Assembly (NCBI GenBank): GCA_973895155.1
Contig: OZ316895.1
Coordinates: 19,544,803 to 19,608,802, forward strand
Direction of reading: 5' to 3'
DNA from: Marsupella aquatica
Taxonomy: Eukaryota; Plantae; Marchantiophyta
DNA length: 64,000 nucleotides
In this document: in pieces, positions 2,201-32,587 of the stretch
How the letters are laid out: every line of letters begins with the position of its first letter
How positions within the stretch are numbered: position 1 is the stretch's first letter
Made by a program: the position numbers and the translations under genes
Notes under the pieces: generated by a model
Seen by the model: the letters and a program-made list of their open reading frames with translations, nothing else
Databases searched by the model: none
What the model was told of the DNA's origin: nothing

Positions 2201-2559
2201 AGCAGGATGAGACTGGAGCCAGATGGCATGATGAGTCAGATAAGGAGATGGTGCCAGGATGGCATGCATCTGCCTTTCTTTGTTGGGTGCCAGCATACAG
2301 AGGATCTGTGGACTCTACCTCATTGGATGGAGTGGATGATGAGTCTTTAGATGTGGATGTTGGTGAGGTAACTTTTGGACAACAAGATATTCACAATGAT
2401 GTGAGAGTGTTGGAATATCTGCGCAGTGGTTCTATTGTTGGCAGTGTTGATGCCAAAGAACGTGACAGGGTTCTACAGAGAGCCAAGAGGTTTCGATGGG
2501 AGGGAAACCATCTTTTAAGAGTACTGCATGATGGTAGGGTGTTGGTGGTACCAAAACCA

Positions 2560-3690: not shown

Positions 3691-3831
3691 TGTATGTTGT
3701 GTGGATCTGCTCAGGGAGTAGCTACTATGTTGATTTGTGATAAGTGTTCTAGAGGATGGCACATGTCATGTTTGACACCACCATTGCAGGTGATTCCTAG
3801 TGGATCATGGTTGTGTCCTTAGTGTCGGTGA
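3691..3831 (+). pseudogene. PHD finger (C4HC3) fused to the integrase C-terminus
   Basis: CMLC...LICDKC..GWHMSCLTPPL..IPSGSWLCP*C; the last Cys lies just after a TAG (likely CAG>TAG). Confidence 0.9.
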
Positions 3832-7221: not shown

Positions 7222-10200
7222 GTGGAACTGATGACACTATTTGCGGATGTCTTCAAATGAGTAAAACTGCATACATCATCTTCACAAGTACGATTACAGT
7301 GGCCTACAAGACTCATCTTGAACCATTTGCACTTGAATACCACTTCCTCCAAAGTAGTATGTGCATGGTACTTCACTGTTAGGATCTCCACAATCTTCCC
7401 ATAATGGGCCACGGTGGAGCGAATGAGATTCATGTCTAACATGCTACTCTGGGAATCTTGGGTGAACCAACCCATCACCCCACAATCCTGTGTAGCTGCC
7501 CTCATCTCATCAAGTCGTTCCACACAAAAATGTCTCCCTTTGACCACATGGCAGTCGGAGTTGTGACTATAAGTAGTGGACCATGAACCAAGGTACGAAG
7601 TTTATCTGTCACGTTTGGGTAGTGTAATACACTCTCCCTTGTACCCACCAGGGCATCCACTTCTAACAACTTCTCCTTCATGTATGGGTGAAACTTGGGA
7701 AATAACCATGGGCGTCGACTGTTTTGCTTCTCCTCCTCATAAAATGTTGTCCACTCGACAACCTCGGGTGAGTTATACAACATAAATGTTGTGAGCTGTA
7801 AACGCTCAACTGAGCCTATGAGACGCTCTCCAGATGCCTCAGTGAGTTTATCATCCTCGTAGTTAGCCTCTCGTGCCGCCTCATCTATCCATCCCCTAGG
7901 AGCACTAGGATCTAGTGTGGCAACTATGTTTGTACAGTAAAACATACTCTCTGCTCCAAGATGACACTCTGCAATGCTACCTTCCACCCTAGCGCGATTA
8001 AAGACATATGACTTCATCACCCCCATATAACGCTCTACCCAATACATCCATCGACAATGTACTGGGCCTGCAATTGCAACCTCGCGCACTAAATGTATGA
8101 GGAAATGAACCTGACCATCAAAGAATGAGGGAGGGAGTGCCTTCTCCAACTTGCAGACAACCTCTACTCCAAATATCTCCATAGCAGCAATGTCATCCTC
8201 CTGTACCTCCTTTTGACATACCCATCCTAAGAGCTTACCCAATGACCAAAGGGCATCACGAAGTTCCTCACTACCCAATCCAATAATAGCAACTGGAAGA
8301 ACATGTTCAAGCAACCGATGATAATCATGTGTCTTCAAGAAAGATGGCCATTTTGGAGAATCCTCCCCCCCCAAATGCCTTCCAAAGATTGGTACCATAA
8401 CCTATGGGAAACCTCATCGACCCAATACGTCTGCAAAACTCAATGCGCTCTGCTAGGGGGAGCAGCAGGGGGGTCCAAAGATGGCCAAAAACCCAAAAGA
8501 CCATGCATTCCCATCTCCTCACAACTTTCTCTCCAATTGTTATTTTTCTCCCCATATAGATGGCAAATCAATGATTTCCCCACATTCCCCTCAATGTGCA
8601 TAGGGTCTAACAAGTGATTAATGGGCATATCTGACCAATATGGCAATTGTGACAATGCAGACAAACGGGTCATGCCACATCTGAATAATGGTAATGGATC
8701 ACTCGGATCGTGAACTCTCCCCCATACCTCTCTCCAATATGCTGGATCCTTCCGTTGAGGTTGAGGACAAATATCAGGTTGGCCCTCATCAGTATCATAA
8801 AGGAATGGATCACTCCTCCAAGGATGGTCTGGTGAGGTATGACATGCGTGACAGTAAATAGGAAACAGGTTTACTGGTACCAGTAAAAATTTATTGTTAC
8901 CAGAAAAATGACAATGTAAAAATATTTCCTAAAAAATCACATTTCTCAAAAAAAAAATTGTCGACAACTTTTTTTGGCTAGCATTACCAGCGTCGGGCGC
9001 TAGCAAAAAAAAAATGGCAAAAAAAAAAAAACTTTTTTTTTTCAAAAACAAAAATTCCAAAAACAAATTCCAAAAAATTCAAAAAAAATTACCACTCATT
9101 TTCCTGTTACCAGTTTCTGTTTCCTGTTACTGTTTGTTGTTTCCTATCGTTTGTAAATACTTCGTCTGGTGGAAGATATTTAGTATGACCAATGTAAACA
9201 ATTTTTTGCGGAGTACTTGACTTGGGCCTGGCCACCCCCTCCAAATCGGGTCCACATGTAGAGCAAGCTCGATAGCCTGATGTTTGCAATACAAAAACAT
9301 ATCCAAACCCTGCCCAGTGCATAGAAAACACATTCATAAAATAAAGTTCATCAAGGCAAAAATCTACATAATTGCAATTAAATGCAAGGTTTAGGTACTA
9401 GAGGAAATAAGGGTTTACCATACCTGGTAAATCATGCATGGTCCACATAAGGATGGCCTTTAGAGTAAATGCGCGGGATAAACCTCCTGTGTTGTGATGT
9501 CCATCATAACAATCCACTCCTCTCCATAGTTGTATCAACTCATCAATCAATGGCTGCAAGTACACATCAATCTTTTTAACCTGCTTAGGACCCGAAATAA
9601 TCATGGAGAGTAGTAGGTGACCTTTCTTCATGGCCATCCAAGGAGGGATGTTGTAGTTTGTCAACACTACTGGCCACACCGAATATGGTTTGGCTTTTCC
9701 TGCCAATGCAAAAGGGCTGATACTGTCTGCCGCCAAGCCTAGTCGAACATGTCGTGGGTCAATTTTGAACTCTCCCCATCTATCCTCTACAAATCAATTG
9801 GCAGGAGAGTCAACCATCATTCGCATGGCACTAGAGGGTACAGCCATATCAGAACAATTTTGTGAGTGCCATACCATCATCTCAGCCAACTCTGCACATC
9901 GGAATTGATGTTGCAATCGAGGGATAAGAGGAAAGTACCTCATAACCTTTTGCGGTACCTTCCCCGTCAACATGTCATCACGTTAACGTGGCTTCTGACA
10001 TTTAGGACATGTAGTGGCATTTTCATGCTCACCCCTAAAAAGAATGCAAGATCATCCACACATGCATGTATCACCTCATACTTCAGGCCAATGGACCTTA
10101 ACACCTGTTTAGCCTCTTTCCAAGAGGCTTGCATTGCGTTGCCTACTGGCAAAATATGATCATGCAAGGTACGGAAAACATCATCCAAAAGTAGATTGTT

Positions 10201-10593
10201 TGCCCCATGTCTTTGCTGCAAGTTGAGCAACAACATTATTGATGAGAGCCGAGATAACCTACTCCCCTCGAATATGCGAGTACGGGCATGACGTTGCGCC
10301 TCCTCCCATTCCTTGTCTTGGGACCCCCTAGAAGGATGTGGATGACTAGTCCTTTCATGGGTTGAACCAATGTCCTCCAAACCAATGTCATCATGATCAT
10401 CATAGAATTGGTCCATGAGCTCATCCATGGCCCTCTCCTCATCAAGATGGTCTTGGATAGGATCATCACCATCATGTCGTACCCCATCCTCTTGCCTTTG
10501 CGGTTCATGCCCACGGTTGGCCACCATGGCCTCAACAAGGTGTTGTCGCATAGCTCGTGATATTACCCCAATATCAGGCGTTACATATTTATT
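7222..10593 (-). pseudogene. CACTA TnpD/Tnp2 transposase, copy A (Transposase_21, DUF4218- and DUF4216-like regions); frameshifted, MITE-interrupted, 3' truncated
   Basis: LSSIMLLL..., EVIHAC, ADSISPF, YSVWPV...NIPPW, IDVYLQPLIDEL, HDLPG, DPMHIEGNV, LKTHDYH, PPSFFDGQVH, WMYWVER, VFKCKWF; intron 9310-9423 (GT-AG). Confidence 0.93.
8834..9163. mobile_element. MITE (about 330 bp) inserted in TnpD copy A
   Basis: Flanking direct repeat GTCTGGT(G) at 8827 and 9164; imperfect long TIRs (GAGGTATGACA..ACAGTAAATAGGAAACAG / reverse complement GAAGTATTTACA..ACAGTAACAGGAAACAG); removing it restores KYLPPDHPWRSD. Confidence 0.85.
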
Positions 10594-10714
10594 CTATCAT
10601 ACAACATCAATTAATTAATCTCATCAACACATGCACTGCTGAACAACATCATTCTCATGTAAACATGTAAAATAAACTGACATATATATACATGTATGTA
10701 AGTCCAAGAAACTA

Positions 10715-12039
10715 TCATGGACGACAACGCAAGGACAATTTTGGTGCATCCCACTCATACTCACACAATAACTCCTCACCAACTCTAATGGTCCTAACAG
10801 CTACTGTCATGATATGGTCGTCCATATGTTTCACAAAATATGGATGTCTAGGTGGACCAAACATTTGAATCCACTCTACATTAGCCTCCAAACCTCTATC
10901 TCTACCTGTGGTACTATTGATGTACCCTGCTAAATTACCGTTCCGAATAGGGTCACCATCAATCATTCGGCAATGCCACGGCCTAGTGAAGACCTCATCC
11001 GGATCTGAGTCCATCCTCAATGCATACACCCCCCAACTTGGGTGTTGACGCAACAAAATATTCCAACTCTTGGAGTTATGTACAGCCCCAATGTAAGGAA
11101 AGAGGTGCTGAGCTCCATCATAACCACGTCTCCATGGTTTTGGAGGGACCACAATATCCTCCAAAGCAAAAGACCATATCCTATATCAGGACCAATAGAG
11201 GATGCCTTCACTGTCCAAGGGCGACCCCATATCTGAACTGGTTCATCTGTAGGAATAAAATCTGGAAATTTGAAGAGACTTGGAGAAAAGTCCTTCAAAA
11301 CTTTGGCAGCCCTACTAGTGAGATAGGATAGTCCAAACTTGCCCTCAACGCAAATATAATCTACGTTGCCGGCTGGTCGATCACTAGTACCTAACACCTC
11401 CTCTTGGCTGTCCACCTGGTCTAGTGGTCCATACTGCCGTCTATGTCTACGAGATCGTGGTTGTGTACGTAGGACCCTAGTAGTCACAACCTCGGGCCGA
11501 GAGACCAGTTCCCCCTCTACATGCTCATGTGTGGGCATGGGAGTGGGGATAGGAGCGGGTGGGCTAAGAGGCATCTGGGCAGGAGGAACTGCAAGCAACT
11601 CCCTGGCCTTTGCTAGAAACCCTTCCAACCACACAGCTTCAGGAACCAAAGGAGGTGGGGGCCTATGAGGCACCTATTTCAACACACGTACAATGGTTTT
11701 ACACAAATCAATAAATTAAGTAGTGGGATGTAAATGCAAGATAATTAAGCAATACCCTAAATTGGAATGCATATATGGAATGAATAGGGGACATAAACAT
11801 ATCTGTACCTGGCTAGGCAAATACCCTAGCATATCACCCTCGTGGCGGCCATAGTTCTCGATGTGCTCACAAGTCTCCCACGCATGTCAAACCACAAGTC
11901 CCTTACATCTCACACACCAGCAAGGTATGGGTCCTAGTGGAGCACGAGGATGATTTGGAGGAAGGGGTGGAGGAACCTCCCCCTTAGACGAGCTCGTGTC
12001 TGAGTCTGAATCTAACGTGGAACTATCAGAAGTAGACAT
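10715..12039 (-). pseudogene. SET-domain protein gene, copy A (exon 1 11809-12039 with a CxCxxC..H motif; exon 2 10715-11673 with SET); one internal stop and one frameshift
   Basis: GYGL(F)ALEDI, YIG, GNLAGYINST, ANVEW, VAVRTIRVGEELLCEY; GT-AG intron 11674-11808; 1-nt loss near 11168. Confidence 0.85.
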
Positions 12040-12354
12040 CTGCATGCATGAAGTACACTCATTCATGTAAGCTGCATAAAAGAAGACAAGTGTTGGAGTA
12101 TCAAAATAGAATTAATTAATACATGAGATACAAAAGTCCTATTGTACCTCAATGATACCCGCACTTTGCCAGCCTATTGTGTTGTATTTTCTACACACAA
12201 GGTGTGGGACATCCAAAATCTCTGCATATATGGGTGAGCATTTTGCTAATGAGCATACATAATCTATAAGTGCGAAAGAGTGTAGGAAGAACACACCACA
12301 TATAAAAAATGCCAACATACAAATTAAGTGTAAATGATGAGGCTCGTGAAGCGG

Positions 12355-13059
12355 GGACATCATACCTCGTGGATGCGCGGTCTCACACTATGTATAGTGC
12401 ATTGTCCAAAACAAAACCTACCTACCCCCTCACAAACATCGAACCACCCCTCCAAACGCAAGGTACTGTGCATCAAATCCAACACAACCATTAGCCTAAT
12501 ATATGGAGGTTGAACCTTATCCTAAGAAAAGGTGTAACCTTATCCTAGTGAAACCCCATACTTAACCCTAAACCCATAAACCCCTCCAAAGAAATGATCC
12601 AAATAGCTTTCACCCAGAAATGGTTAGTACAAAAACTTCTTGTAGTATTTTGTCTATCATATATCATAGTATTGAGTTCCCATCACCACAACCATCCCTA
12701 AACTTGCAAGGAACTTGCAAGAGGACATCATACCTCCTAGATGCGCGGTTTCATGCATAGTGCATTGTCCAAAATTGAAACCTCCCTACCCCCTCAAAGA
12801 AAAGTTAACCACCCCTCCAAAAGCAAGGTACTACACATCAAATCCAAACACCAAGATTAGCCTAATGGAGGGGTTTAATATTATCCTAATAAAAGGTATA
12901 ATGTTATACTAATAAAACCTCTACGTACATCCATAATCTCCTATAAAGAAATGAAACAAAAGGCTTTCACCCAAAAATGGTTCATACAAAAACTTCTTGT
13001 AGTATTTTCTTGATCCTATATTACATATCATAGTATTGAGTTCCCATCACCACAACCAT
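12355..13059. repeat. Diverged tandem duplication (about 368-bp unit) in the divergent-promoter region of CACTA 1 (also at +8433)
   Basis: GGACATCATACCTC...GAGTTCCCATCACCACAACCAT present twice (starts 12355 and 12723). Confidence 0.8.
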
Positions 13060-13688
13060 GGTCCCTAAAACACCAAGACTCTATACACAATTGCATCATT
13101 AATTAGAGCCCAATATATTAAGCATGCAAGACCATGGCTTATCAAAAAAATTACATAGTCCGGTACAAACCCCAAAATTTTTTCTTTGCAACAAAGAAAC
13201 TTGCAAGAGGTCCCTCTACATGCATGACACGTTCACTGTCCCGTTCACATATGTAGAGCCCTACAAAACGCCAATTCAAATATGAAAGCAAATAATAACT
13301 CCAACCATGTGCCCTTACCCCATACAAAACCTAAATATCCTAAATTATACTCTAAACCCTCCAATCCCATACCCAACCCAAATTCAAAATATTATATTGG
13401 ACCCCCTTTGGGAAAGCCAAGAGGTATCTGATATAACTTCATGAGGGGTCCGATGCAATAGGAAACGGACCACACTTGGTAAATACATGGCCACAAGAAA
13501 AGGAGGAGGGGTCCGAAGCAGATAGTTTCGGAAAGTCCGATTGTGTGTCCAATACCTATGGTTTTGCAAAGTCCGAAACAAAAAGAATCGGAAGCAGCAG
13601 GTTTCGTTTCGGAAAAAAGAACCGATGCAGATGCGAAGACCCGCGCGTCGGGCCCCATTTTGCACTTGGTGTTTTTCAAAAATTTTGA

Positions 13689-15654
13689 AGTTGGATCAAG
13701 GAGGAGAGCTTGAAGGAGGAGGAGAGATGGAGGGGGCGGGGCATCAGGTGGTGGGGGAGACCAAGGGGGATCAGGTGGTGGGGGAGAGCAAGGGGGACCG
13801 CCCTAGCCATACAATGAGGTTATGAAGGACATTTTTGTGGCCAAGGCAGGGCTGAGTGTGGAAGACGCGGAGAGAGTAGTCCCACTCCCCCAAACGCTGA
13901 TTGATGCCTCTCGGCGTGAGGCAGAGAAGACTGTTGCTGCAAGCATTGCAAGTGAGAAGTAGGCAAAGAAGAGGAAGAAAGAGGCAAAGAGAGGCAAAGA
14001 GAGGCAAGGGGGATGCTGAGGAGACACTGTCTCCAAGAAAACGAGAGAAAAAGCTTTGAAAAGAAGCTAGGGTAATTGAGAAGGTGCGATTGGAGGAGCA
14101 AAGGCGAAAGGAGGCAGAGAGAGCTCTCAGGCCTGAGCTAGCTCGCAATTTGGGTGGTGGCCCATTACCTAAGAGCTACCATCTATTCCAAAGCCAATTC
14201 AAGCAGGTGCTGAGGGCCAATTTGGGGCCACTGGATTACTGGGGCAAGGAGGAAGAGAGATTGAGAATCAGAGAGCAGGTGAAGGAACGGTTCAGGAACG
14301 GGGCCTACATTGATGACAGGTTCCTAAACAAACAAATTTCAGCATCACTCTCAGACATGGGCAATCATCAACGAGAGAAATTCAGAAAGTACTTTGGAGA
14401 TATGGCAGTGGATGCAGAGGTGATCAAGGAGGAGGGTTGTCCAGACGATGTTTCCCCCAATGAGTGGGCGGCTTGGCTTGAGGAGAAACTCTCAGTCCGA
14501 GCTTGGCTGAAAAGAAGACATTGGGACAACAAAATTAGGCTGGCAGAGGAGAAGCAAAAGGCTGGGGAGAATGTTGATATCCTCCCCCTTCAACAGAACC
14601 TGCAACAATGGGCAGTTCAGGCAGAAAGACTCCCCAAACCACCAAGGCACATCATAGCAGCATTGGAGAGAGTGCAGGGGAGGCCAACCATCACTCACCG
14701 GATGGGGCAAGGCAACTCCAATTGATTGAAGGCTGAGTTTGTAAGTGCCCTCCCTCTCCTCCCACCTCAACTCCCTGATCACCTGACTCCTCGCACGAAG
14801 AATGAGTTGTTTGTGCCTTATGTTTTTTGTTTAAACCCTTTGCAAAACGTGTTTTTGCTCTCGGGCCTGTTCTTTCCGATACTCATCCAATAGGTTTTGC
14901 ATCGGAAGCAGCATCGGACACCGTGTTATGCCATTTTTCCTGTTACACATCCGATAGACGTCCGATGTAGGCTGTATCGGACTTTGCATCGGACCCCTCG
15001 GCAAAACATTTAAATTTTTGAATGAACGTACTTAACATTAATTTTTTACTAGGGTAGAGTATAAGTTAGGGTAAACTATGGTTTTAGGTTACATCAGGGC
15101 TATGTAGGGTGGCTTGGTTTAGGGTAGGGCACGCTAATACTAGATTTGATATTAACCTGGCCTCTATGGTTTGGATCTTTAAATTTCAGGAGCGGGAGTA
15201 TGGTCGCCCTATTGCGCCGTTGGAGAGGAATTTGGCAAAGACGGATGGAACCCGCGCTCTAAAGCGCCACCTTGAGGATGAGTTGGGAGAGGTAAGTGTT
15301 CACCCTAGGGTGACATAATGTTTAAGGTTGTCATGAATTTGTTAGAGTTATGGTCGGGACCATTCATTCTAACCGCTTGCAATTAAACCCTATTGCGCAG
15401 GATGAGGAGGGGTCAGGGTCGGAGGAGTTGGACTCAGATTCTGAGCAGGATGCTGAGGCAGGGTTGGGGAGGGTGCCCACAGTCACCCCTACCCCTCAGG
15501 TCCGAGGTGTTGTTGCCCCATCAGCAGGGAGGGGTGGGTCACATGCTGCTAATGGTGTGGGCTCCCATCGCTCTGGAGCATCACGGGGTGCAGGGTCCAG
15601 GCACTCAAGGTGATGGCATGGGACGAGGCCATCGCGCAGGAGTATCTGGTGCAG
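13689..15654 (+). pseudogene. TnpA/Ptta-like ORF2, copy A, truncated at the duplication junction
   Basis: CPDDVSPNEWAAWL and THRMGQG resemble Transposase_24-type motifs; spliced; identical to copy B. Confidence 0.7.
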
Positions 15655-18600
15655 GTGGAACTGATGACACTATTTGCGGATGTCTTCAAATGAGTAAAAC
15701 TGCATACATCATCTTCACAAGTACGATTACAGTGGCCTACAAGACTCATCTTGAACCATTTGCACTTGAATACCACTTCCTCCAAAGTAGTATGTGCATG
15801 GTACTTCACTGTTAGGATCTCCACAATCTTCCCATAATGGGCCACGGTGGAGCGAATGAGATTCATGTCTAACATGCTACTCTGGGAATCTTGGGTGAAC
15901 CAACCCATCACCCCACAATCCTGTGTAGCTGCCCTCATCTCATCAAGTCGTTCCACACAAAAATGTCTCCCTTTGACCACATGGCAGTCGGAGTTGTGAC
16001 TATAAGTAGTGGACCATGAACCAAGGTACGAAGTTTATCTGTCACGTTTGGGTAGTGTAATACACTCTCCCTTGTACCCACCAGGGCATCCACTTCTAAC
16101 AACTTCTCCTTCATGTATGGGTGAAACTTGGGAAATAACCATGGGCGTCGACTGTTTTGCTTCTCCTCCTCATAAAATGTTGTCCACTCGACAACCTCGG
16201 GTGAGTTATACAACATAAATGTTGTGAGCTGTAAACGCTCAACTGAGCCTATGAGACGCTCTCCAGATGCCTCAGTGAGTTTATCATCCTCGTAGTTAGC
16301 CTCTCGTGCCGCCTCATCTATCCATCCCCTAGGAGCACTAGGATCTAGTGTGGCAACTATGTTTGTACAGTAAAACATACTCTCTGCTCCAAGATGACAC
16401 TCTGCAATGCTACCTTCCACCCTAGCGCGATTAAAGACATATGACTTCATCACCCCCATATAACGCTCTACCCAATACATCCATCGACAATGTACTGGGC
16501 CTGCAATTGCAACCTCGCGCACTAAATGTATGAGGAAATGAACCTGACCATCAAAGAATGAGGGAGGGAGTGCCTTCTCCAACTTGCAGACAACCTCTAC
16601 TCCAAATATCTCCATAGCAGCAATGTCATCCTCCTGTACCTCCTTTTGACATACCCATCCTAAGAGCTTACCCAATGACCAAAGGGCATCACGAAGTTCC
16701 TCACTACCCAATCCAATAATAGCAACTGGAAGAACATGTTCAAGCAACCGATGATAATCATGTGTCTTCAAGAAAGATGGCCATTTTGGAGAATCCTCCC
16801 CCCCCAAATGCCTTCCAAAGATTGGTACCATAACCTATGGGAAACCTCATCGACCCAATACGTCTGCAAAACTCAATGCGCTCTGCTAGGGGGAGCAGCA
16901 GGGGGGTCCAAAGATGGCCAAAAACCCAAAAGACCATGCATTCCCATCTCCTCACAACTTTCTCTCCAATTGTTATTTTTCTCCCCATATAGATGGCAAA
17001 TCAATGATTTCCCCACATTCCCCTCAATGTGCATAGGGTCTAACAAGTGATTAATGGGCATATCTGACCAATATGGCAATTGTGACAATGCAGACAAACG
17101 GGTCATGCCACATCTGAATAATGGTAATGGATCACTCGGATCGTGAACTCTCCCCCATACCTCTCTCCAATATGCTGGATCCTTCCGTTGAGGTTGAGGA
17201 CAAATATCAGGTTGGCCCTCATCAGTATCATAAAGGAATGGATCACTCCTCCAAGGATGGTCTGGTGAGGTATGACATGCGTGACAGTAAATAGGAAACA
17301 GGTTTACTGGTACCAGTAAAAATTTATTGTTACCAGAAAAATGACAATGTAAAAATATTTCCTAAAAAATCACATTTCTCAAAAAAAAAATTGTCGACAA
17401 CTTTTTTTGGCTAGCATTACCAGCGTCGGGCGCTAGCAAAAAAAAAATGGCAAAAAAAAAAAAACTTTTTTTTTTCAAAAACAAAAATTCCAAAAACAAA
17501 TTCCAAAAAATTCAAAAAAAATTACCACTCATTTTCCTGTTACCAGTTTCTGTTTCCTGTTACTGTTTGTTGTTTCCTATCGTTTGTAAATACTTCGTCT
17601 GGTGGAAGATATTTAGTATGACCAATGTAAACAATTTTTTGCGGAGTACTTGACTTGGGCCTGGCCACCCCCTCCAAATCGGGTCCACATGTAGAGCAAG
17701 CTCGATAGCCTGATGTTTGCAATACAAAAACATATCCAAACCCTGCCCAGTGCATAGAAAACACATTCATAAAATAAAGTTCATCAAGGCAAAAATCTAC
17801 ATAATTGCAATTAAATGCAAGGTTTAGGTACTAGAGGAAATAAGGGTTTACCATACCTGGTAAATCATGCATGGTCCACATAAGGATGGCCTTTAGAGTA
17901 AATGCGCGGGATAAACCTCCTGTGTTGTGATGTCCATCATAACAATCCACTCCTCTCCATAGTTGTATCAACTCATCAATCAATGGCTGCAAGTACACAT
18001 CAATCTTTTTAACCTGCTTAGGACCCGAAATAATCATGGAGAGTAGTAGGTGACCTTTCTTCATGGCCATCCAAGGAGGGATGTTGTAGTTTGTCAACAC
18101 TACTGGCCACACCGAATATGGTTTGGCTTTTCCTGCCAATGCAAAAGGGCTGATACCGTCTGCCGCCAAGCCTAGTCGAACATGTCGTGGGTCAATTTTG
18201 AACTCTCCCCATCTATCCTCTACAAATCAATTGGCAGGAGAGTCAACCATCATTCGCATGGCACTAGAGGGTACAGCCATATCAGAACAATTTTGTGAGT
18301 GCCATACCATCATCTCAGCCAACTCTGCACATCGGAATTGATGTTGCAATCGAGGGATAAGAGGAAAGTACCTCATAACCTTTTGCGGTACCTTCCCCGT
18401 CAACATGTCATCACGTTAACGTGGCTTCTGACATTTAGGACATGTAGTGGCATTTTCATGCTCACCCCTAAAAAGAATGCAAGATCATCCACACATGCAT
18501 GTATCACCTCATACTTCAGGCCAATGGACCTTAACACCTGTTTAGCCTCTTTCCAAGAGGCTTGCATTGCGTTGCCTACTGGCAAAATATGATCATGCAA

Positions 18601-19026
18601 GGTACGGAAAACATCATCCAAAAGTAGATTGTTTGCCCCATGTCTTTGCTGCAAGTTGAGCAACAACATTATTGATGAGAGCCGAGATAACCTACTCCCC
18701 TCGAATATGCGAGTACGGGCATGACGTTGCGCCTCCTCCCATTCCTTGTCTTGGGACCCCCTAGAAGGATGTGGATGACTAGTCCTTTCATGGGTTGAAC
18801 CAATGTCCTCCAAACCAATGTCATCATGATCATCATAGAATTGGTCCATGAGCTCATCCATGGCCCTCTCCTCATCAAGATGGTCTTGGATAGGATCATC
18901 ACCATCATGTCGTACCCCATCCTCTTGCCTTTGCGGTTCATGCCCACGGTTGGCCACCATGGCCTCAACAAGGTGTTGTCGCATAGCTCGTGATATTACC
19001 CCAATATCAGGCGTTACATATTTATT
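15655..19026 (-). pseudogene. CACTA TnpD transposase, copy B
   Basis: Duplicate of 7222-10593; retains ADGISPF. Confidence 0.93.
17267..17596. mobile_element. MITE, copy B
   Basis: Duplicate of 8834-9163. Confidence 0.85.
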
Positions 19027-19147
19027 CTATCATACAACATCAATTAATTAATCTCATCAACACATGCACTGCTGAACAACATCATTCTCATGTAAACATG
19101 TAAAATAAACTGACATATATATACATGTATGTAAGTCCAAGAAACTA

Positions 19148-20472
19148 TCATGGACGACAACGCAAGGACAATTTTGGTGCATCCCACTCATACTCACACA
19201 ATAACTCCTCACCAACTCTAATGGTCCTAACAGCTACTGTCATGATATGGTCGTCCATATGTTTCACAAAATATGGATGTCTAGGTGGACCAAACATTTG
19301 AATCCACTCTACATTAGCCTCCAAACCTCTATCTCTACCTGTGGTACTATTGATGTACCCTGCTAAATTACCGTTCCGAATAGGGTCACCATCAATCATT
19401 CGGCAATGCCACGGCCTAGTGAAGACCTCATCCGGATCTGAGTCCATCCTCAATGCATACACCCCCCAACTTGGGTGTTGACGCAACAAAATATTCCAAC
19501 TCTTGGAGTTATGTACAGCCCCAATGTAAGGAAAGAGGTGCTGAGCTCCATCATAACCACGTCTCCATGGTTTTGGAGGGACCACAATATCCTCCAAAGC
19601 AAAAGACCATATCCTATATCAGGACCAATAGAGGATGCCTTCACTGTCCAAGGGCGACCCCATATCTGAACTGGTTCATCTGTAGGAATAAAATCTGGAA
19701 ATTTGAAGAGACTTGGAGAAAAGTCCTTCAAAACTTTGGCAGCCCTACTAGTGAGATAGGATAGTCCAAACTTGCCCTCAACGCAAATATAATCTACGTT
19801 GCCGGCTGGTCGATCACTAGTACCTAACACCTCCTCTTGGCTGTCCACCTGGTCTAGTGGTCCATACTGCCGTCTATGTCTACGAGATCGTGGTTGTGTA
19901 CGTAGGACCCTAGTAGTCACAACCTCGGGCCGAGAGACCAGTTCCCCCTCTACATGCTCATGTGTGGGCATGGGAGTGGGGATAGGAGCGGGTGGGCTAA
20001 GAGGCATCTGGGCAGGAGGAACTGCAAGCAACTCCCTGGCCTTTGCTAGAAACCCTTCCAACCACACAGCTTCAGGAACCAAAGGAGGTGGGGGCCTATG
20101 AGGCACCTATTTCAACACACGTACAATGGTTTTACACAAATCAATAAATTAAGTAGTGGGATGTAAATGCAAGATAATTAAGCAATACCCTAAATTGGAA
20201 TGCATATATGGAATGAATAGGGGACATAAACATATCTGTACCTGGCTAGGCAAATACCCTAGCATATCACCCTCGTGGCGGCCATAGTTCTCGATGTGCT
20301 CACAAGTCTCCCACGCATGTCAAACCACAAGTCCCTTACATCTCACACACCAGCAAGGTATGGGTCCTAGTGGAGCACGAGGATGATTTGGAGGAAGGGG
20401 TGGAGGAACCTCCCCCTTAGACGAGCTCGTGTCTGAGTCTGAATCTAACGTGGAACTATCAGAAGTAGACAT
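19148..20472 (-). pseudogene. SET-domain protein gene, copy B
   Basis: Duplicate of 10715-12039. Confidence 0.85.
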
Positions 20473-22121
20473 CTGCATGCATGAAGTACACTCATTCATG
20501 TAAGCTGCATAAAAGAAGACAAGTGTTGGAGTATCAAAATAGAATTAATTAATACATGAGATACAAAAGTCCTATTGTACCTCAATGATACCCGCACTTT
20601 GCCAGCCTATTGTGTTGTATTTTCTACACACAAGGTGTGGGACATCCAAAATCTCTGCATATATGGGTGAGCATTTTGCTAATGAGCATACATAATCTAT
20701 AAGTGCGAAAGAGTGTAGGAAGAACACACCACATATAAAAAATGCCAACATACAAATTAAGTGTAAATGATGAGGCTCGTGAAGCGGGGACATCATACCT
20801 CGTGGATGCGCGGTCTCACACTATGTATAGTGCATTGTCCAAAACAAAACCTACCTACCCCCTCACAAACATCGAACCACCCCTCCAAACGCAAGGTACT
20901 GTGCATCAAATCCAACACAACCATTAGCCTAATATATGGAGGTTGAACCTTATCCTAAGAAAAGGTGTAACCTTATCCTAGTGAAACCCCATACTTAACC
21001 CTAAACCCATAAACCCCTCCAAAGAAATGATCCAAATAGCTTTCACCCAGAAATGGTTAGTACAAAAACTTCTTGTAGTATTTTGTCTATCATATATCAT
21101 AGTATTGAGTTCCCATCACCACAACCATCCCTAAACTTGCAAGGAACTTGCAAGAGGACATCATACCTCCTAGATGCGCGGTTTCATGCATAGTGCATTG
21201 TCCAAAATTGAAACCTCCCTACCCCCTCAAAGAAAAGTTAACCACCCCTCCAAAAGCAAGGTACTACACATCAAATCCAAACACCAAGATTAGCCTAATG
21301 GAGGGGTTTAATATTATCCTAATAAAAGGTATAATGTTATACTAATAAAACCTCTACGTACATCCATAATCTCCTATAAAGAAATGAAACAAAAGGCTTT
21401 CACCCAAAAATGGTTCATACAAAAACTTCTTGTAGTATTTTCTTGATCCTATATTACATATCATAGTATTGAGTTCCCATCACCACAACCATGGTCCCTA
21501 AAACACCAAGACTCTATACACAATTGCATCATTAATTAGAGCCCAATATATTAAGCATGCAAGACCATGGCTTATCAAAAAAATTACATAGTCCGGTACA
21601 AACCCCAAAATTTTTTCTTTGCAACAAAGAAACTTGCAAGAGGTCCCTCTACATGCATGACACGTTCACTGTCCCGTTCACATATGTAGAGCCCTACAAA
21701 ACGCCAATTCAAATATGAAAGCAAATAATAACTCCAACCATGTGCCCTTACCCCATACAAAACCTAAATATCCTAAATTATACTCTAAACCCTCCAATCC
21801 CATACCCAACCCAAATTCAAAATATTATATTGGACCCCCTTTGGGAAAGCCAAGAGGTATCTGATATAACTTCATGAGGGGTCCGATGCAATAGGAAACG
21901 GACCACACTTGGTAAATACATGGCCACAAGAAAAGGAGGAGGGGTCCGAAGCAGATAGTTTCGGAAAGTCCGATTGTGTGTCCAATACCTATGGTTTTGC
22001 AAAGTCCGAAACAAAAAGAATCGGAAGCAGCAGGTTTCGTTTCGGAAAAAAGAACCGATGCAGATGCGAAGACCCGCGCGTCGGGCCCCATTTTGCACTT
22101 GGTGTTTTTCAAAAATTTTGA

Positions 22122-24488
22122 AGTTGGATCAAGGAGGAGAGCTTGAAGGAGGAGGAGAGATGGAGGGGGCGGGGCATCAGGTGGTGGGGGAGACCAAGGG
22201 GGATCAGGTGGTGGGGGAGAGCAAGGGGGACCGCCCTAGCCATACAATGAGGTTATGAAGGACATTTTTGTGGCCAAGGCAGGGCTGAGTGTGGAAGACG
22301 CGGAGAGAGTAGTCCCACTCCCCCAAACGCTGATTGATGCCTCTCGGCGTGAGGCAGAGAAGACTGTTGCTGCAAGCATTGCAAGTGAGAAGTAGGCAAA
22401 GAAGAGGAAGAAAGAGGCAAAGAGAGGCAAAGAGAGGCAAGGGGGATGCTGAGGAGACACTGTCTCCAAGAAAACGAGAGAAAAAGCTTTGAAAAGAAGC
22501 TAGGGTAATTGAGAAGGTGCGATTGGAGGAGCAAAGGCGAAAGGAGGCAGAGAGAGCTCTCAGGCCTGAGCTAGCTCGCAATTTGGGTGGTGGCCCATTA
22601 CCTAAGAGCTACCATCTATTCCAAAGCCAATTCAAGCAGGTGCTGAGGGCCAATTTGGGGCCACTGGATTACTGGGGCAAGGAGGAAGAGAGATTGAGAA
22701 TCAGAGAGCAGGTGAAGGAACGGTTCAGGAACGGGGCCTACATTGATGACAGGTTCCTAAACAAACAAATTTCAGCATCACTCTCAGACATGGGCAATCA
22801 TCAACGAGAGAAATTCAGAAAGTACTTTGGAGATATGGCAGTGGATGCAGAGGTGATCAAGGAGGAGGGTTGTCCAGACGATGTTTCCCCCAATGAGTGG
22901 GCGGCTTGGCTTGAGGAGAAACTCTCAGTCCGAGCTTGGCTGAAAAGAAGACATTGGGACAACAAAATTAGGCTGGCAGAGGAGAAGCAAAAGGCTGGGG
23001 AGAATGTTGATATCCTCCCCCTTCAACAGAACCTGCAACAATGGGCAGTTCAGGCAGAAAGACTCCCCAAACCACCAAGGCACATCATAGCAGCATTGGA
23101 GAGAGTGCAGGGGAGGCCAACCATCACTCACCGGATGGGGCAAGGCAACTCCAATTGATTGAAGGCTGAGTTTGTAAGTGCCCTCCCTCTCCTCCCACCT
23201 CAACTCCCTGATCACCTGACTCCTCGCACGAAGAATGAGTTGTTTGTGCCTTATGTTTTTTGTTTAAACCCTTTGCAAAACGTGTTTTTGCTCTCGGGCC
23301 TGTTCTTTCCGATACTCATCCAATAGGTTTTGCATCGGAAGCAGCATCGGACACCGTGTTATGCCATTTTTCCTGTTACACATCCGATAGACGTCCGATG
23401 TAGGCTGTATCGGACTTTGCATCGGACCCCTCGGCAAAACATTTAAATTTTTGAATGAACGTACTTAACATTAATTTTTTACTAGGGTAGAGTATAAGTT
23501 AGGGTAAACTATGGTTTTAGGTTACATCAGGGCTATGTAGGGTGGCTTGGTTTAGGGTAGGGCACGCTAATACTAGATTTGATATTAACCTGGCCTCTAT
23601 GGTTTGGATCTTTAAATTTCAGGAGCGGGAGTATGGTCGCCCTATTGCGCCGTTGGAGAGGAATTTGGCAAAGACGGATGGAACCCGCGCTCTAAAGCGC
23701 CACCTTGAGGATGAGTTGGGAGAGGTAAGTGTTCACCCTAGGGTGACATAATGTTTAAGGTTGTCATGAATTTGTTAGAGTTATGGTCGGGACCATTCAT
23801 TCTAACCGCTTGCAATTAAACCCTATTGCGCAGGATGAGGAGGGGTCAGGGTCGGAGGAGTTGGACTCAGATTCTGAGCAGGATGCTGAGGCAGGGTTGG
23901 GGAGGGTGCCCACAGTCACCCCTACCCCTCAGGTCCGAGGTGTTGTTGCCCCATCAGCAGGGAGGGGTGGGTCACATGCTGCTAATGGTGTGGGCTCCCA
24001 TCGCTCTGGAGCATCACGGGGTGCAGGGTCCAGGCACTCAAGGTGATGGCATGGGACGAGGCCATCGCGCAGGAGTATCTGGTGCAGGTGGTCCTTCCCG
24101 ACGAGGTAGTGGCGACGTGCCGGATGGTGGATCTAGAGGGTGCGCACCATCTCGTGAGTATGGTGGGAGTACAGCACGACATGGGCCACCCACAGGATAT
24201 GTCGGCGCACCATCCCATCACTCTAGCAGGTCGGCGGGAGGAGCTGAGGCCTCCTATCACTCTGCCGTGTCGGGGGTTGGTGGGACATCTACCTTGCCTG
24301 ACCACCCTAGCGGTGCATCTAGTGGGTCAGGGTCTAGGCCTGCATCAGGCCAACCCATGCCATCTGGTGAGCAGGTGGCTGCCATGGTTGTGGGCAGCCA
24401 GAGGGAGGAGGGCTCTCATGATGCTAGACCTGTACCCACCCTTCGTTCTTGCCCAAAGAAGAAGAAGGGACGCAACACACCTTTTTAG
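22122..24488 (+). pseudogene. TnpA/Ptta-like ORF2, copy B, full extent (exons end 23172; 23623-23724; 23834-24488)
   Basis: GT-AG introns; Gly/Ser-rich tail ending in basic PKKKKGR; homologous to 27342-30261. Confidence 0.72.
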
Positions 24489-24849: not shown

Positions 24850-25335
24850 CGTATCGGTAATACAGCAGTGTCCGATGCTGCTGCCTTTGAACTTTCCCAT
24901 CCCCAATGCATCGGACCCCTCCTTCAAGGTTCCCATATTAAATCTATCGGATAGTCCAATACCAAACATAACGCACTTTCCGTTTTTCTAACTAATGCAA
25001 TGTCCGATACTAATTACTTTGCAAATTGCCATATGAAATCTATCGGACATTCCGATTTAAATAGGATTGGACAAAGGAAGTCGTTGTGTGCCGTCGTGTG
25101 TTAGTTATCCTATTCATTTTACATCGGACATAAAATATTCGTAACATGTTACAACGGAACGTCCATTTCCCAAAATATCGAAAAGTCCGATGGAAGTCCG
25201 ATGGTCGATATGCGATGGTTTGGGCATCGCAAAGTGCATTGGGAATTGCATCGGATGATATAAATTTTTGCGTCAATTTTCCTGAAGGGATTTGATGTAA
25301 ATCCTATCGAATAAAGGCCCAAAAATGTACTAGTG
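24850..25335 (-). repeat. CACTA 1 terminal inverted repeat and subterminal TCCGAT/ATCGGA array
   Basis: TAGTG at 25331-25335; many TCCGAT/ATCGGA copies in both orientations. Confidence 0.88.
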
Positions 25336-26579: not shown

Positions 26580-29500
26580 CACTAGTACATTATGAGGCCA
26601 ATTTCCGATATGGACACCTTCGGATCCCTTTGTAAACTTTTGCCAAGAAAAATATCTCATCCGACTCTAAACGTATCGCAAATTCCGACTCTCAACCCAT
26701 CGGATAACGACAATCGGAAGATAATCGGACTTTGCGATACAAAAATTAACGCACTTTGCGTACCCAACAATAACGGAAAAGAAGCCTTCCAATGTTCTGA
26801 AAATCGGAAATGGAAGAGGGGAGCCGATACACTTCCGATACAGTTCCGATCCGTAAAGAATCGGACTTTGGGTAACTGCGAATATCGCATATTGCATATC
26901 AAAAGGTTACGCAAAGACCGTAAATAAACGTATCGAACATACCGTCGTTTGAAAGATCAGAAATACCGTTACTAGGAGTATCGGAAAGACCGTAACCGAG
27001 AATATCGGAAAGATCGATTCTTTGGGGATGGCAAATTCCGAGTTTTAGAGAATCGGACATTCCGATATTTTTAAGATCGGAGGAGTATCGGATAATTGAA
27101 GGGGTAAAATTTCCGATTATTAATTTTGGGGGTGTGGGGGTTACAATGTTGGGATGCATGGAAGTGAGCATGGGTAGCAAGAATGGTACAGTGAGACTCA
27201 AAAGGGGGAAAACCCCTGCCATTATATATACAAAAGAGGATGGCCTCCTCTAGCATGGAAAGTACAACCTTTACATGTACAGGTGTATAATCCATCTCAA
27301 CCTGCATGGTATCGTGGCCTACCTACAAATGGTCACCTGGCCTATCCATATGTTGGTGCATGTCGTCCCTTCCTCTTCTTGGCACGAGGGCGATAACTCT
27401 CTGGTCGGGTAGTGGCATCTGGCACTAACCCTAGGACCCTGTCAATGACAGCATGAGATCCAGTTGCAGCTGTGGTGCTTGGAGCTATCGCGGTACCAAC
27501 GTCACCAACATCACCTTCTAAGTCATGAGAAGGCATTGTAACACCCCCAGCATCGGAGCAAGTATGAAATGATGCACTTCCACTACCCCCTTGGGCTGCA
27601 GAGTGGTGAGACCCTGCACCTCCACTAGCCCCTGACTGGTGAGATGGAGTCCCATCACCAATGCCACCAACTGCAGTCCCACTCACCCTATTGGCCCCTG
27701 AATGACCACGAGCAGTGCTCCCACCCCCACTAGCCCCTCCACCACTAGCCCCTGAATGGCGAGAACCATTCCCGCCAACAACCCCTGAATGGCGGCGAGA
27801 ACCACCATGGGGCCCACTACCAACCCCCCCACCAGACCCGGGCCTGTACGTGAGAACCACTATGGGCCAGTGTACTACCCCGCCCACCAGCACCTGCAGA
27901 TCGATCAAAACCGCCCCGACGCCCACTACCACTTGTCCCAACACCACCTCCAGCAGCTGTAGCACCCCCACTACCTCCTGCTACTCTACGGCCACCTACA
28001 TCACCATCAGTCCTCCGTCTGGAATGACTACCTCGAGTCCCTCGGGATGTGCCGCCAATCAAGCGAACAGGGGTGGGTGCCACACTCCCCTCCTTAGCCT
28101 CAGCCTCAGACTCTGAATCTGAGGCCCCCGAACCCTCCTCGGCTGAGTCCAAACCCTCCGACTCCTCATTTGACTCCTACATACATGTAAGCAACCATGA
28201 ACCCAAGTGTTAGTGTTACAAATGACCTACAAGGGAGTGATTATAACCATATTGCATTCAAAGGTTAGAAATATGGTTTTCAATTGTGCATATACTTACC
28301 GACCCCAACTCGTCCTGCATGTGAAGTTTCAGAGCCCGCGTTCCAAATTTCTTAGCCAACTCTCTCTCAGGTGGCAAGATTGGGCGTCCATGCTCTCGCT
28401 CCTGCACCATACCCAAGATAATAATTAACCCCCCTCCCCGGCAAATGAAAATAAAATTGAAACCCCCCATTACTTGAAATACATTATTTTAAAAGTTAAT
28501 CCCTACCAAATCCCCCACATTACTTAATGAATAATAATCCCTACCTAGCCCCACACATTACTTAGAAAAATTCCCTAACACCCCCACATCCCTTTCAACT
28601 CATGGGTATCACTACCCACTCTACCTATATAAAATACTCCCTTATTATCGTGGTCTAACTATCGCAAAAAGCAACGACAACCTAAGCCCGACACTCCTTA
28701 AAAAAAACAAACCCCCCGGCGTGGCCTAAAACAGTCAAATATTCAAAATTTTGAATTTTCCCGATGCTTCCCTAATCGGACCCCTCCACCCTAAACCCCA
28801 AAACCTAAGGTCCGATGCAGGGTCCGATTCTCAGGTAATCGGACCATAATCGGAAGCCTTGTGTCCAAAACCCATAAGAGAGAGTCCCACTCCATTTCTG
28901 TCTCTTCAGCAATCGGAATAGAATCGGAAACAGAAAAAAATAAGGACAAATCAAAACTTGCGATACAGGCTCGATAACAAACGCACACGGATAAGAGGGG
29001 AGGTCTGGGAGGACTTATGCAGGCATAGCCAAGGTTGTGCCTGAGGTGATCAGGGAGAGGGAGGACCCAATTTCAAGGTGAAAATTCAGCAAGGAGGCGA
29101 GCAAGGAGGAGGGGAGCAGAGGACTTACAAACTCTGCTTTGAGACGATGCGCTCCACCCTGCCCCATTCGGTGAGTAACTGCAGGTCTCTTCTCCACCCT
29201 CTCAATTGCATTTTGAATGTAAAGTGGAGGGTCTCCAAGCAGTGCTAATTTGGCCTCCATTCCATTAAGTTTTGCTGCAGGAGGGGGATGTCAACAGTCT
29301 GTCCTGAAAGGACCCTCTTCTCTGCCTCATCGAGCTCAGCCTGCCAGTGACGTCTTGCTTGCCAAGCACGAACATGTAGCTCAGCATCAATCCAAGCAGA
29401 CCAGGCATCAATTGGTATCTCATCCGGGGGATCTCTCTACCTGATCACCTCTGCCTCCTCCTTACAATCTGCCAGGTACTTCCTCATCTTTTCTCTCACA

Positions 29501-32500
29501 TTATTACGTCTATCTGCAAGTGAACGTGAGATCTTCTTATTCAGCCATCGATCATCCAGGAAGCAGCCATTACAGAATCGCTCCTTCACTTGCTCCCTTG
29601 CTTGAAATTTCTCCTCTTCTTTCTTCTTCCCCCAGTAGTCTAAGGGGCTGAAATTTGCCCTCAACACCTGCCCTAGCTGACTTCTGAACAAATTGTAGCT
29701 CTTTGTCATCGGAGCTCCTCCCTTATTAATGAACAATTTTGGCCGTTTGACCCTTTCCTCTGCTCGTAGCCTCTCTTCCTCAATCCTTGCCCTCTCTGCA
29801 GCTCGAGCCTCCTTTCTAAGCCTCTTCTCTCTTTCTTGTGGTGAGAGGGCCTCCACTGGCCTGCCTTTCCTCTCCTCCTTCCTCTTTCTTTTTTTCTCCT
29901 TTCCTTTCTCTAGCCTCTCCATGAAAGCCTTCTCTGCTTCACTTATGGCAGATTGCCTGGATTCGTCAATCAGGCCCTGGGTCAATTGAGCTGCTATGGC
30001 TGCAGCTTCAACAGACAGGCCTGCTTGCCTCTTGAAAATCTCTGCCATAATGTCCGAGATCTGCTGTGACGGCCCTGCTCCATCTCCACCCACCCTGGCT
30101 GCTCCGTCTCCTCCCCCCCCCAGCCGTGCCATTCCCCTCCATAGCCTCGACCTCCAATGCGTGCTCCTCCACTTTGTGTTCACTCGGCAGCTCCTCCCAA
30201 GTTGCATCCGAAACCAAGCCCGATACAAAGACATTCGTACTTTAGTTGGGAAAAGTACCAAACCCTATTGTGCCCTCCATCCGACTTTTTAAGAATCGGA
30301 ACATCCGATACTTGAACTATCAAAAACGGGATCGGAAATAGCGATGCTTAAAGTATCGGACCCCTCTTCCAATATGATCGGACTTAGCTTGTCCATTATT
30401 TTTTATGCCTTTAAGGATGGATTTATAATAAGTTAGTCAATGGGGGGGGGGGGGCTGGGGATGTGGTAAGGAAATGTAAGTTTAGTTGATGTGAAAACTT
30501 GCATTGTAATTGTAGGCCTGGTTGAGTAGCCGGATTTTGTTTGGGCGGTGGGGTTCTTGAATAAAAGCCGGTTATAGGTGCGGTAACGTCCCCCTTACGA
30601 CAACATACTTTTGGGGTTGAACGGTATGATCATTGACCCACTCACATTAAAAGTTTTGACAAATTTGTCCACCTTGTATGTGGATTTAATTTTGGGGGCC
30701 AAACAAAGTTAACCTCATGTGCGTGTATTGTGCAGTATTTTTTTGCGGAGGGTTGGGTCGTTCTCTTTGTTTGTATTTTTGTAGGTCCATTTTTGCAATG
30801 CATTATGCATCACGATAGGCCGTGCATCCGAAAGGTATGATATACTCCCTTTATCATTTGGAGGTGAGCACTTTAAGTATATATTTGGCTAAACTTTTTT
30901 CATTGATGGCCACAATATATAGTGGATATGATTCTATGGGGACATATGTATAGATAAATTCTGATGGTATTCCTTTAATTGTGCAGACATTTCGGATATT
31001 GTCTTAGCATATATTCTAAGGCCAAGATCCTAGTAGGCATTGTTCAGTGCGGATATCATTTAGGTAAGATGCACAGTCATTATTTTTAATTATTCGCTTA
31101 GTGTAAACTAGGTTCCAATCTTGACATATTGTATTTAGGGTACTTAATATGAGTGGGAACGATTTTTGACATGTGATTAATTTTCACATTGATGGGCAGA
31201 TGTCAAATTCTGGGAGTTCCGAGTCAGATTCTGACTCGGACTCGTCATCTTCTGAGGGGGACATTCCTCCCCCCCCCTCCAAGGCCGCATCATCCTCCTC
31301 CTCCTCTAGGCCCCATTCCATGTTGGTGTGTGCGATGTAAGGGAATGGTGGTTTGTCAAGCTTGGGAGTGTATTGAGCATATTGAGAATTATGGGCAACA
31401 CCAACCTGATTTACCAGGACATTCAGCTCACCAAGTATGCACCCCATACTCTCATCCCACACATTTTGAAGGAAACATAATTTGCCACTTACAATCATGG
31501 CCACTATCATCATATATTTATTAATTTTGGATTTTTTTTGAATGAATAGGTGCCCCGTAGGCCCCCTCCTCCATTGATCTCTAAAGAGCTATGGCTAGAC
31601 ATATTCTTGGCTAGTGCAAGACGGATGCTTGCATCAACATCTACACCCCCTCCTCCTGCCCCGTGCCCCAATGGTGAGGGCGGGAGTGTACCTGTAGCAA
31701 GGGTGGAGGACATTGAGCAAGGTGACCTGGAGGTACCTCCATCTAGGGTTCTACGCACCGGCCCACGCTCCCATAGGCATAGGAGACATTACGAACCATT
31801 GGGCACTCGTGAGTCTCAAGACCCAAACTTGGTAGGTCCGCCTATGATGAAGCCAGGTGAGGGTTATGTGGTAGTGGAGGGTAGGTTGGGATTGTCATAT
31901 CTCACTGGAAAGGCGTTGCCTCTTGTGAAGGACTTCTCGTCTGAGATATTCAAAATCCCTCAAGGCATACCCACTAATGCCCCTATAGAGATATGGGGCC
32001 GTCATTGGATAGTGCAGTCATCTTCCCTTGGTGTTGATGTAGGATTTGGGTTATTTGCTTTGGAGGACATTGTGGTCCATCCAAAGCCATGGCGAAGAGG
32101 TTATGATGGGGAACACTTATTTCCTTATATTGGCCCTATATACACTGCCAAGAATTGGAACATTATTTTACGGCAACAACCATCATGGGGAGTGTATGCA
32201 TTGCAAATGGATTCCGATCCGGATGAGGTCCTCAAGAGGCCTTGGCATTGTAGGATGATTGATGGTGATCCTGTGCGATGTGATAACATCGCTGGGTATA
32301 TCAATAGTACCAAAGGGAGAGGACGAGGACTTCAACCAAATGTAGAGTGGGTTCAGATTTTTGGGGCACCGCCACCACCTTACTATGTGAAGCATATGGA
32401 TGACCATGTTATGACTGTAGCCATTAGGACTATTAGGGCTGGTGAGGAACTCTTTTGTGACTATGATTGGAACGCGCCTAAGATGGCCATACGGTGTCGT

Positions 32501-32502
32501 CC
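26580..32502 (+). mobile_element. CACTA/EnSpm DNA transposon 2 (diverged relative, opposite orientation) carrying a SET gene; TnpD half missing
   Basis: Starts CACTAGTACATTATGAGGCC at 26580; dense TCCGAT/ATCGGA array 26600-27120; ORF2 and SET genes homologous to CACTA 1. Confidence 0.92.
27342..30261 (-). pseudogene. TnpA/Ptta-like ORF2 of CACTA 2 (donor at 29128; exon 28300-28401; last exon from 28176)
   Basis: KSYNLFRSQLGQVLRANFSPLDYWGK, THRMGQGG, RAKKRKGR; same 102-nt middle exon as CACTA 1; frameshifts. Confidence 0.75.
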
Positions 32503-32587
32503 TGTGACACGGGCAACGTGTCACTTGACCGAACCCAGGTCGAAGATTAGGACTTATACGGTCATAAGGACCGTAGCCATAGCGTAG
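31200..32587 (+). CDS. SET-domain protein of CACTA 2 (exon 1 31200-31434, exon 2 from 31550); near-intact; last 27 aa come from the inserted LTR
   Basis: Uninterrupted 345-aa exon-2 ORF: GFGLFALEDI, YIGPIY, DNIAGYINST, PNVEW, VAIRTIRAGEELFCDY; exon 1 has one extra C in the C9 run at 31269-31277. Confidence 0.88.

Follow-up and report, generated by a model that had tools for sequence, protein, structure and literature searches.

Features of the locus

The window, by which we mean the whole 64,000-nucleotide stretch of Marsupella aquatica DNA that was analysed, contains a CACTA transposon, identified by its matching termini and by the Transposase_21 and DUF4218 domains that are still recognizable in its decayed transposase gene, TnpD (PF02992, E 1e-38; PF13960, E 1e-30). 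An 11-nucleotide terminus is common to positions 25335–25325 on the minus strand and 26580–26590 on the plus strand, providing a CACTA-type terminal inverted repeat with one end per copy inside the window. Beside these termini, subterminal hexamers typical of CACTA elements occur at 21 and 26 per kb, versus 0.2 per kb elsewhere. The far ends of both copies, where a 3-bp target-site duplication would be sought, have been removed by later insertions. The only named close relatives of the element come from the liverwort Calypogeia fissa.

The copy described here in most detail (copy 1) reads, in order on the minus strand, as a set of leader blocks, an exon encoding a Cys/His finger, a SET exon with its own stop, a short spacer and TnpD; one phase-0 donor is followed by two phase-0 AGs (Table 1). 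Pfam domains in this copy comprise SET (10718–11185), Transposase_21 (9793–9401) and DUF4218 (8401–7505), with a TnpD intron located near 9417–9310. Copy 1 is a fossil that can make neither a finger-SET nor a finger-TnpD protein, because it carries a TGA at codon 51 of the finger exon, a frameshift in the SET exon and several lesions in TnpD (shifted frames, stops and a 337-bp insert, with the gene cut short near 7222). The insert, at 8827–9163, is T-rich with imperfect inverted ends, has 8 ambiguous bases at its joint and resembles a small non-autonomous element; it is absent from contigs of all four sequencing runs that were inspected (4/4, with DNA-like coverage). These runs come from two studies and none is recorded as RNA; their contigs cover 30/30 bins, introns as well as exons, as expected of DNA, and among 15 of 73 joints displayed none connects 11809 with 10593, a join that DNA would not reveal.

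Table 1. Positions of the features of the CACTA copies within the window
Feature	Position	Strand	Description
TnpD, decayed	7222..10593	-	acidic N-terminal part, Transposase_21, DUF4218; first Met 10551
Spacer	10594..10714	-	121 nt, AT-rich; inferred to serve as SET 3' UTR and as predicted end of the 1,215-nt finger-TnpD intron; candidate acceptor TAG 10596-10594
SET terminal exon	10715..11673	-	helix, low-complexity linker, SET domain (PF00856)
Finger-SET intron	11674..11808	-	135 nt, GT-AG, 31% GC, 42% identity to copy 3
First coding exon	11809..12039	-	231 nt, ATG start, phase-0 GT donor
Leader exon B, likely non-coding	12148..12221	-	74 nt (copy 3: 77 nt, 30987-31063); both splice sites conserved
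Conserved block with leader exon A donor	12358..12404	-	last exon base 12366; 30834 in copy 3
Divergent multi-exon accessory gene	13800..15654	+	complete version about 22250-24488
Second unit of tandem duplication	15655..24091		8,433 bp, one mismatch; same finger (20472-20242), SET and TnpD lesions
Element end	24850..25335		hexamer repeats, 10 in 486 nt versus 5 in 24 kb elsewhere; terminus CACTAGTACAT on minus strand (25335-25325)
Copy 3, diverged family member	26580..32503	+	begins with the 11-nt terminus at 26580; minus-strand accessory gene

Much of copy 1 is present twice, in head-to-tail units (7222–15658 and 15655–24091) whose junction runs via 4 shared bases from the accessory gene to the 3' part of TnpD; this tandem duplication is either very recent or an assembly artefact. 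Its second unit extends to the dense hexamer repeats and the CACTA terminus at 25335, which lies 1.2 kb from the related end at 26580, the two being in opposite orientation, end to end. The latter end belongs to copy 3, in which the finger exon (31200–31434) is frameshifted within a C run and the SET exon (31550–32503) is open until another insertion cuts it just ahead of the stop. We found no TnpD belonging to copy 3 within the 64-kb window. The accessory gene lies on the opposite strand in both families, is 54% identical to its copy 3 counterpart (29814–29147) with a pN/pS of 0.32, and matches no Pfam family in the pieces scanned; it is TnpA-like by position only.

The surrounding DNA contains further mobile sequences. 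Three related insertions carry a coiled-coil ORF (5742–7222, 32503–36022 and 57826–60147; 56–58% identical), and members of that family cut both CACTA copies, in one case just ahead of the SET stop. Fragments of a PIF/Harbinger-type transposase (Plant_tran, DDE_Tnp_4) lie at 39951–40964 on the minus strand, and exons of a host RNA-binding (RRM) gene at 48161–51446 on the same strand. Another chromatin-related domain is found nearby, in a Ty3/Gypsy-type reverse transcriptase and integrase (1222–3822, plus strand) that bears a C-terminal PHD finger (PF00628, E 3e-9).

The finger exon and its splice to SET

The finger exon encodes a Ser/Asp-rich stretch and a Pro-rich stretch, followed by the finger itself, CWCVRC-x13-HIENYG. 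The preliminary description of this DNA had placed a Cys/His-finger exon at 12039–11809, ending in a phase-0 donor, and both coordinates and phase are borne out by the sequence. That description had also called it exon 1, which is correct insofar as it is the first coding exon; it is not the first exon. Its ATG is directly preceded by CAG in both window families (the outside sequences P0020 and P0022 read Gln-Met at this point), and two splice units upstream of it are conserved between the same two families. We examined a coding role for leader exon B and rejected it, its only open frame, in copy 1, having stops in copy 3. Leader exons A and B are likely to be 5' untranslated exons. The presumed promoter region includes a direct repeat of ∼350 bp (12355–12695 and 12723–13059, 80% identical), each unit of which contains the leader donor; the conserved block of leader exon A recurs at ∼12734.

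Downstream of the finger exon, the SET exon is entered in phase 0 behind an AG at 11675–11674. The earlier placement of a phase-0 SET acceptor at 11673, and of the end of SET at TGA TAG, was correct; the TGA occupies 10717–10715, and the TAG follows directly and extends through 10712. When copies 1 and 3 are compared, identity reaches 73% in the finger exon and 74% in the SET core, while the intron that separates them is only 42% alike and yet retains both donor and acceptor; we therefore regard the finger-SET splice sites as conserved beyond chance. (The copy 3 donor is shifted by an alignment gap; both finger exons nevertheless end in Gln followed by GT.) At the donor position, all three finger ORFs from outside the window (3/3) read Gln-Val and then diverge, and an annotated Calypogeia fissa gene model, P0005, joins the last 30 residues of the finger exon to the SET exon at the identical junction. 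A splice of the finger to SET is thereby strongly indicated.

The SET exon encodes a putative enzyme under purifying selection

In copy 1, translation from 11673 runs into a stop at 11017, because a frameshift near 11170 has moved the SET core into a different frame. The SET sequence of copy 3 scores 32.5 bits against PF00856 (cut-off 22.4), and 15 relatives of this SET family were identified at 41–65% identity. Comparison of copy 1 with copy 3 gave a pN/pS of 0.32 for the finger exon (95% interval 0.17–0.64; 43 codons) and of 0.24 for the 3' part, or core, of SET (0.17–0.32; 150 codons). As judged against this diverged copy, both exons are under purifying selection.

SET domains are characterized by a Gly-x-Gly motif, an Asn-His motif and a terminal Tyr. 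In the window's family the glycines (G165 and G167) are nearly invariant, and N252 and the terminal tyrosine, Y305, are invariant (14/14); the residue after Asn252 is a Ser in all 14, and post-SET cysteines are absent. An AlphaFold model of the SET protein (mean pLDDT 62) has a SET fold, matching COMPASS Set1 with a Z score of 11.6 (rmsd 2.6 over 124 aligned residues), and SETD8, MLL, ASH1L, EZH2, SET7/9 and PRDM5 all fell within ∼1 Z unit of that value (Z 10.3–11.6), so that scores tied across families do not permit a substrate class to be called. A search of PDB sequences with the SET profile returned only weak matches to EZH2 and MLL (E 0.018 or worse). When the SET alignment was used to search for loci, one real relative (L001) was recovered among 7 metagenome loci and none in viral contigs, and prokaryote genomes yielded 2 matches, both short and generic to SET; the corresponding searches with TnpD alignments returned no viral contigs (0).

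The candidate acceptor of TnpD

The preliminary description had the TnpD frame opening in phase 0 at 10593. This is the case: the TAG at 10596–10594 opens a 208-codon TnpD N-terminal frame that lacks a Cys/His finger. The first Met is codon 15 of this frame, leaving 14 codons between it and the acceptor. The 40 nucleotides upstream of 10593 (42% T, 28% GC) are inside the range of the element's other acceptors, and 31% of resampled spacers contain, by chance, a phase-0 YAG within the frame that is open ahead of the first Met. Taken alone, the acceptor is weak and not above chance.

A Pro-Asp-Ile in the 14 codons before the first Met is also found in P0026 and P0028, a few residues into what look like exon starts of those proteins (shuffle p 0.13 and 0.08), and the corresponding segments of 7 other relatives have no likeness at that place. 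In L001, which is 39% alike in SET, one phase-0 AG likewise precedes SET and a second lies 128 nt past the SET stop (compared with 121 nt here), the latter opening an acidic frame; that frame gave no alignment to TnpD (probability 0.2%). The Calypogeia fissa TnpD model P0002 begins, without a finger, at a Met equivalent to 10551; it looks unspliced, since it also reads into the next intron. On the minus strand an AATAAA occupies 10593–10588, directly past the candidate acceptor, and is absent at the matching place in L001. The 3' splice site could therefore be in competition with this motif acting as the poly(A) signal of the SET transcript.

A separate finger between SET and TnpD had been named as an observation that would count against a shared finger exon. 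We looked for one and found none, either in the 121-nt spacer or in the related gene models that span the region (3/3).

The finger resembles that of TnpD transposases

The earlier suggestion that the finger exon encodes the transposase-associated domain (PF13963) fared unevenly. Pfam's own model did not detect it: five versions of the finger gave no PF13963 match with hmmscan at E values up to 1 or 10, and the gathering score over the 74-position model is not reached by the finger, nor by the fingers of the sister group described below. Since Pfam gave no match, the finger was compared with TnpD proteins themselves. The 150 best matches of the TnpD profile were collected and the three that bear SET were left out, giving 147. 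Within the first 200 residues, 49 of these contain a CxCxxC..H..G motif, and in 37 of the 49 the last Cys and the His are separated by 13 residues, as in the window finger. A profile was built from 45 distinct TnpD fingers and run against 2,130 six-frame chunks of the window, in which chunks of the finger exon occupied ranks 1–5 (12.1 to 8.3 bits; the next scored 7.6). None of 2,000 shuffles reached the score of the real finger, and hhalign returned a probability of 94.4% over 32 columns; the match is inflated and the test partly circular, because the sequences used for training were selected with a motif to which the query itself conforms.

The CxCxxC-x13-H-xxx-G core that the finger shares with the TnpD N-terminus corresponds to the first half of the PF13963 domain; the match covers that half and the second half is absent. 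Among motif-bearing TnpD proteins compared with PF13963, 7/11 pass the cut-off, 3/11 fall below it and 1/11 has no match. In the Atlas, PF13963 is present in 78–87% of the members of four Transposase_21 clusters that resemble the N-terminal half of the family's TnpD, and a search there with the finger itself gave no usable match. A profile of the five fingers, run against the 150 TnpD matches, picked out P0026 (E 0.002) and otherwise just weaker, partial matches. The structure model of the finger is poor (pLDDT 60, pTM 0.26) and had no match in the PDB. We take the window's finger to be a divergent version of the transposase-associated finger of the TnpD N-terminus.

Relatives that carry SET ahead of TnpD

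Of the five best TnpD matches, three (P0024, P0026 and P0027) carry the window's SET family upstream of TnpD. One of them, the distant model P0026, has the order Ser-rich leader, finger, SET part, TnpD. The SET matches in P0024, P0026 and P0027 end at profile positions 142, 225 and 255, and because SET is left at three different places the joins to TnpD look like merged gene predictions. The start of P0006 resembles the end of the finger exon of P0022; we did not count this likeness, which an intron-end reading fits equally.

A FastTree tree of 148 sequences was midpoint-rooted; of 153 proteins, 6 with short matches had been left out, and the window fragment was added. The window's TnpD belongs to a 10-member clade (support 0.94; a clade of 11 has support 0.97) that holds all three of the SET-bearing models among the 150 best matches (3/3); P0002–P0004 also group with it, as expected of sequences that were the query. 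No member of this clade has a finger directly on TnpD, most of them starting too far downstream to tell, and in the sister group 3 of 34 proteins (P0044, P0052 and P0060) have finger and TnpD in one chain. A SET-bearing clade beside a sister group with finger-TnpD chains makes it likely that SET was inserted behind the finger in the window's CACTA clade.

Proposed splicing of the element and alternative explanations

The preliminary description had cast SET as an alternative terminal exon inside the first intron of TnpD. Its finger-SET half is strongly indicated, the splice from the finger to 10593 is suggested by inference, and copy 1 itself makes neither product. We consider it probable that intact copies splice one finger exon either to SET or, skipping SET, to TnpD; for finger-TnpD the case rests on the identity of the finger, the tree and the geometry of the locus. 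Use of the near acceptor (135-nt intron) would very probably give a finger-SET protein of ∼395 residues that ends before TnpD, and use of the far acceptor (1,215-nt intron) would give a normal finger-TnpD. SET, having probably entered behind the finger, would in this way have become an alternative terminal exon, with the choice of splice site and poly(A) site setting the ratio of finger-SET to finger-TnpD.

The main rival is that the finger now belongs to SET alone and that TnpD is made without one, from the Met at 10551, via a splice from the leader to 10593 or from a promoter of its own. The leader exons upstream of the finger offer it a possible route, as they could be the part that the two transcripts share; the start of P0002 at the equivalent Met and the lack of significant conservation in the codons before that Met would both suit it, and Arabidopsis EN/SPM families are described as switching between spliced and split-gene layouts (PMC13547354). 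Against this, a finger is common at the start of TnpD and is kept by sister-group proteins, the Met is differently placed in P0004 and P0025, and a promoter lying outside SET coding sequence would have little space in the 121-nt spacer. We judge a finger-less TnpD to be decidedly unlikely.

Two further explanations treat SET differently. A single finger-SET-TnpD fusion, made by a splice that leaves from within the SET exon and enters at the TnpD acceptor, would account for the predicted proteins P0024, P0026 and P0027, with their SET parts followed by TnpD, but those models leave SET at three different places, as merged predictions would. The SET frame is moreover selected to its end and closes with two stops, and among the GT sites listed in both SET exons no conserved strong donor was singled out; such a fusion is very unlikely. 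SET might instead be a captured host fragment, a passive passenger without a role for the element, as with the host fragments carried by CACTA elements such as Tgm-Express1 (PMC2613891), and the damage seen in both window families would agree with that. It is opposed by purifying selection on finger and SET between copies whose dS is above 1, by the 15 SET relatives at 41–65% identity, and by the position of SET ahead of TnpD across the whole clade. The passenger explanation, extremely improbable in our view, is largely refuted by pN/pS values well below 1.

Returning to a shared finger exon, finger-SET would be a putative SAM-dependent lysine methyltransferase. We tentatively suggest, as a possibility not far short of evenly balanced, that it marks the chromatin of the element's own copies and so counters host silencing, being brought there by the finger or by the accessory protein. 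In maize the subterminal repeats are bound by TnpA (PMC2613891), so targeting could be ascribed just as well to the divergently encoded accessory protein. Alternatively, finger-SET might methylate the element's own proteins or damp the element itself. A more specific version, that this bryophyte CACTA lineage has its own sequence-targeted chromatin writer, made from one promoter by a choice of splicing, with a putative finger-SET protein that finds the copies via its finger and writes an activating mark, is speculative and on balance unlikely.

Escape from silencing is known for few transposons, and VANDAL is the proven case according to the portions of the literature available to us. A CACTA clade with a selected SET enzyme, likely sharing the finger of the transposase, would permit a direct test of an element writing histone marks on itself. 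If true, the proposal would give the transposase-associated finger a function, and would illustrate how an element can acquire an accessory gene that needs no promoter of its own, by placing it within the transposase gene as an alternative terminal exon.

Comparison with known systems

SET genes, proposed to affect the chromatin of the transposon, have been described as cargo of other elements: in oomycete HarbingerS and MuDR (PMC12730594), and in red-algal Plavaka elements of the EnSpm superfamily (as PAG2) and Helitrons (bioRxiv 10.1101/2025.02.11.637652). The window element resembles these carriers in retaining a SET gene. In the sections of those reports that were accessible, their SETs are described as separate accessory genes (PAG2 also having an adenine methylase domain), and none is described as sharing a transposase exon or as belonging to a land-plant CACTA element with Transposase_21. 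In the literature searched (Repbase Reports and most subscription journals lay outside its coverage) no account came to light of a land-plant CACTA element whose transposase gene contains a SET exon; SET cargo and CACTA alternative splicing are each already published, and a layout combining them was not found there.

In its proposed action the finger-SET protein would resemble VANC of VANDAL elements, as another element-encoded factor acting on the chromatin of its own family (cited in PMC12730594 and bioRxiv 10.1101/2025.02.11.637652). By those secondary accounts VANC has a demonstrated anti-silencing action and is not a SET enzyme, whereas the action of finger-SET is a proposal drawn from sequence.

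A transposase N-terminus common to two proteins is also seen in soybean Tgmt*, cDNAs of which fuse the first 346 bp of transposase exon 1 with exons further downstream that belong to a second protein (PMC2613891). There the partner is a putative DNA-binding protein encoded downstream of the transposase, not a SET domain, and the join was called non-standard.

Finally, in maize En/Spm and in Arabidopsis EN/SPM3 and EN/SPM7, a single transcription unit gives rise, by alternative splicing, to the transposase and a second protein (PMC2613891; PMC13547354). The window element shares with them CACTA termini, subterminal repeats, Transposase_21 and DUF4218. Their arrangement differs in that the second product of En/Spm-type elements is the DNA-binding TnpA, with TnpD located within TnpA's first intron, whereas in the window element, known here from its DNA, the second product would be a SET enzyme whose exon precedes TnpD, and the accessory gene is separate and oppositely oriented.
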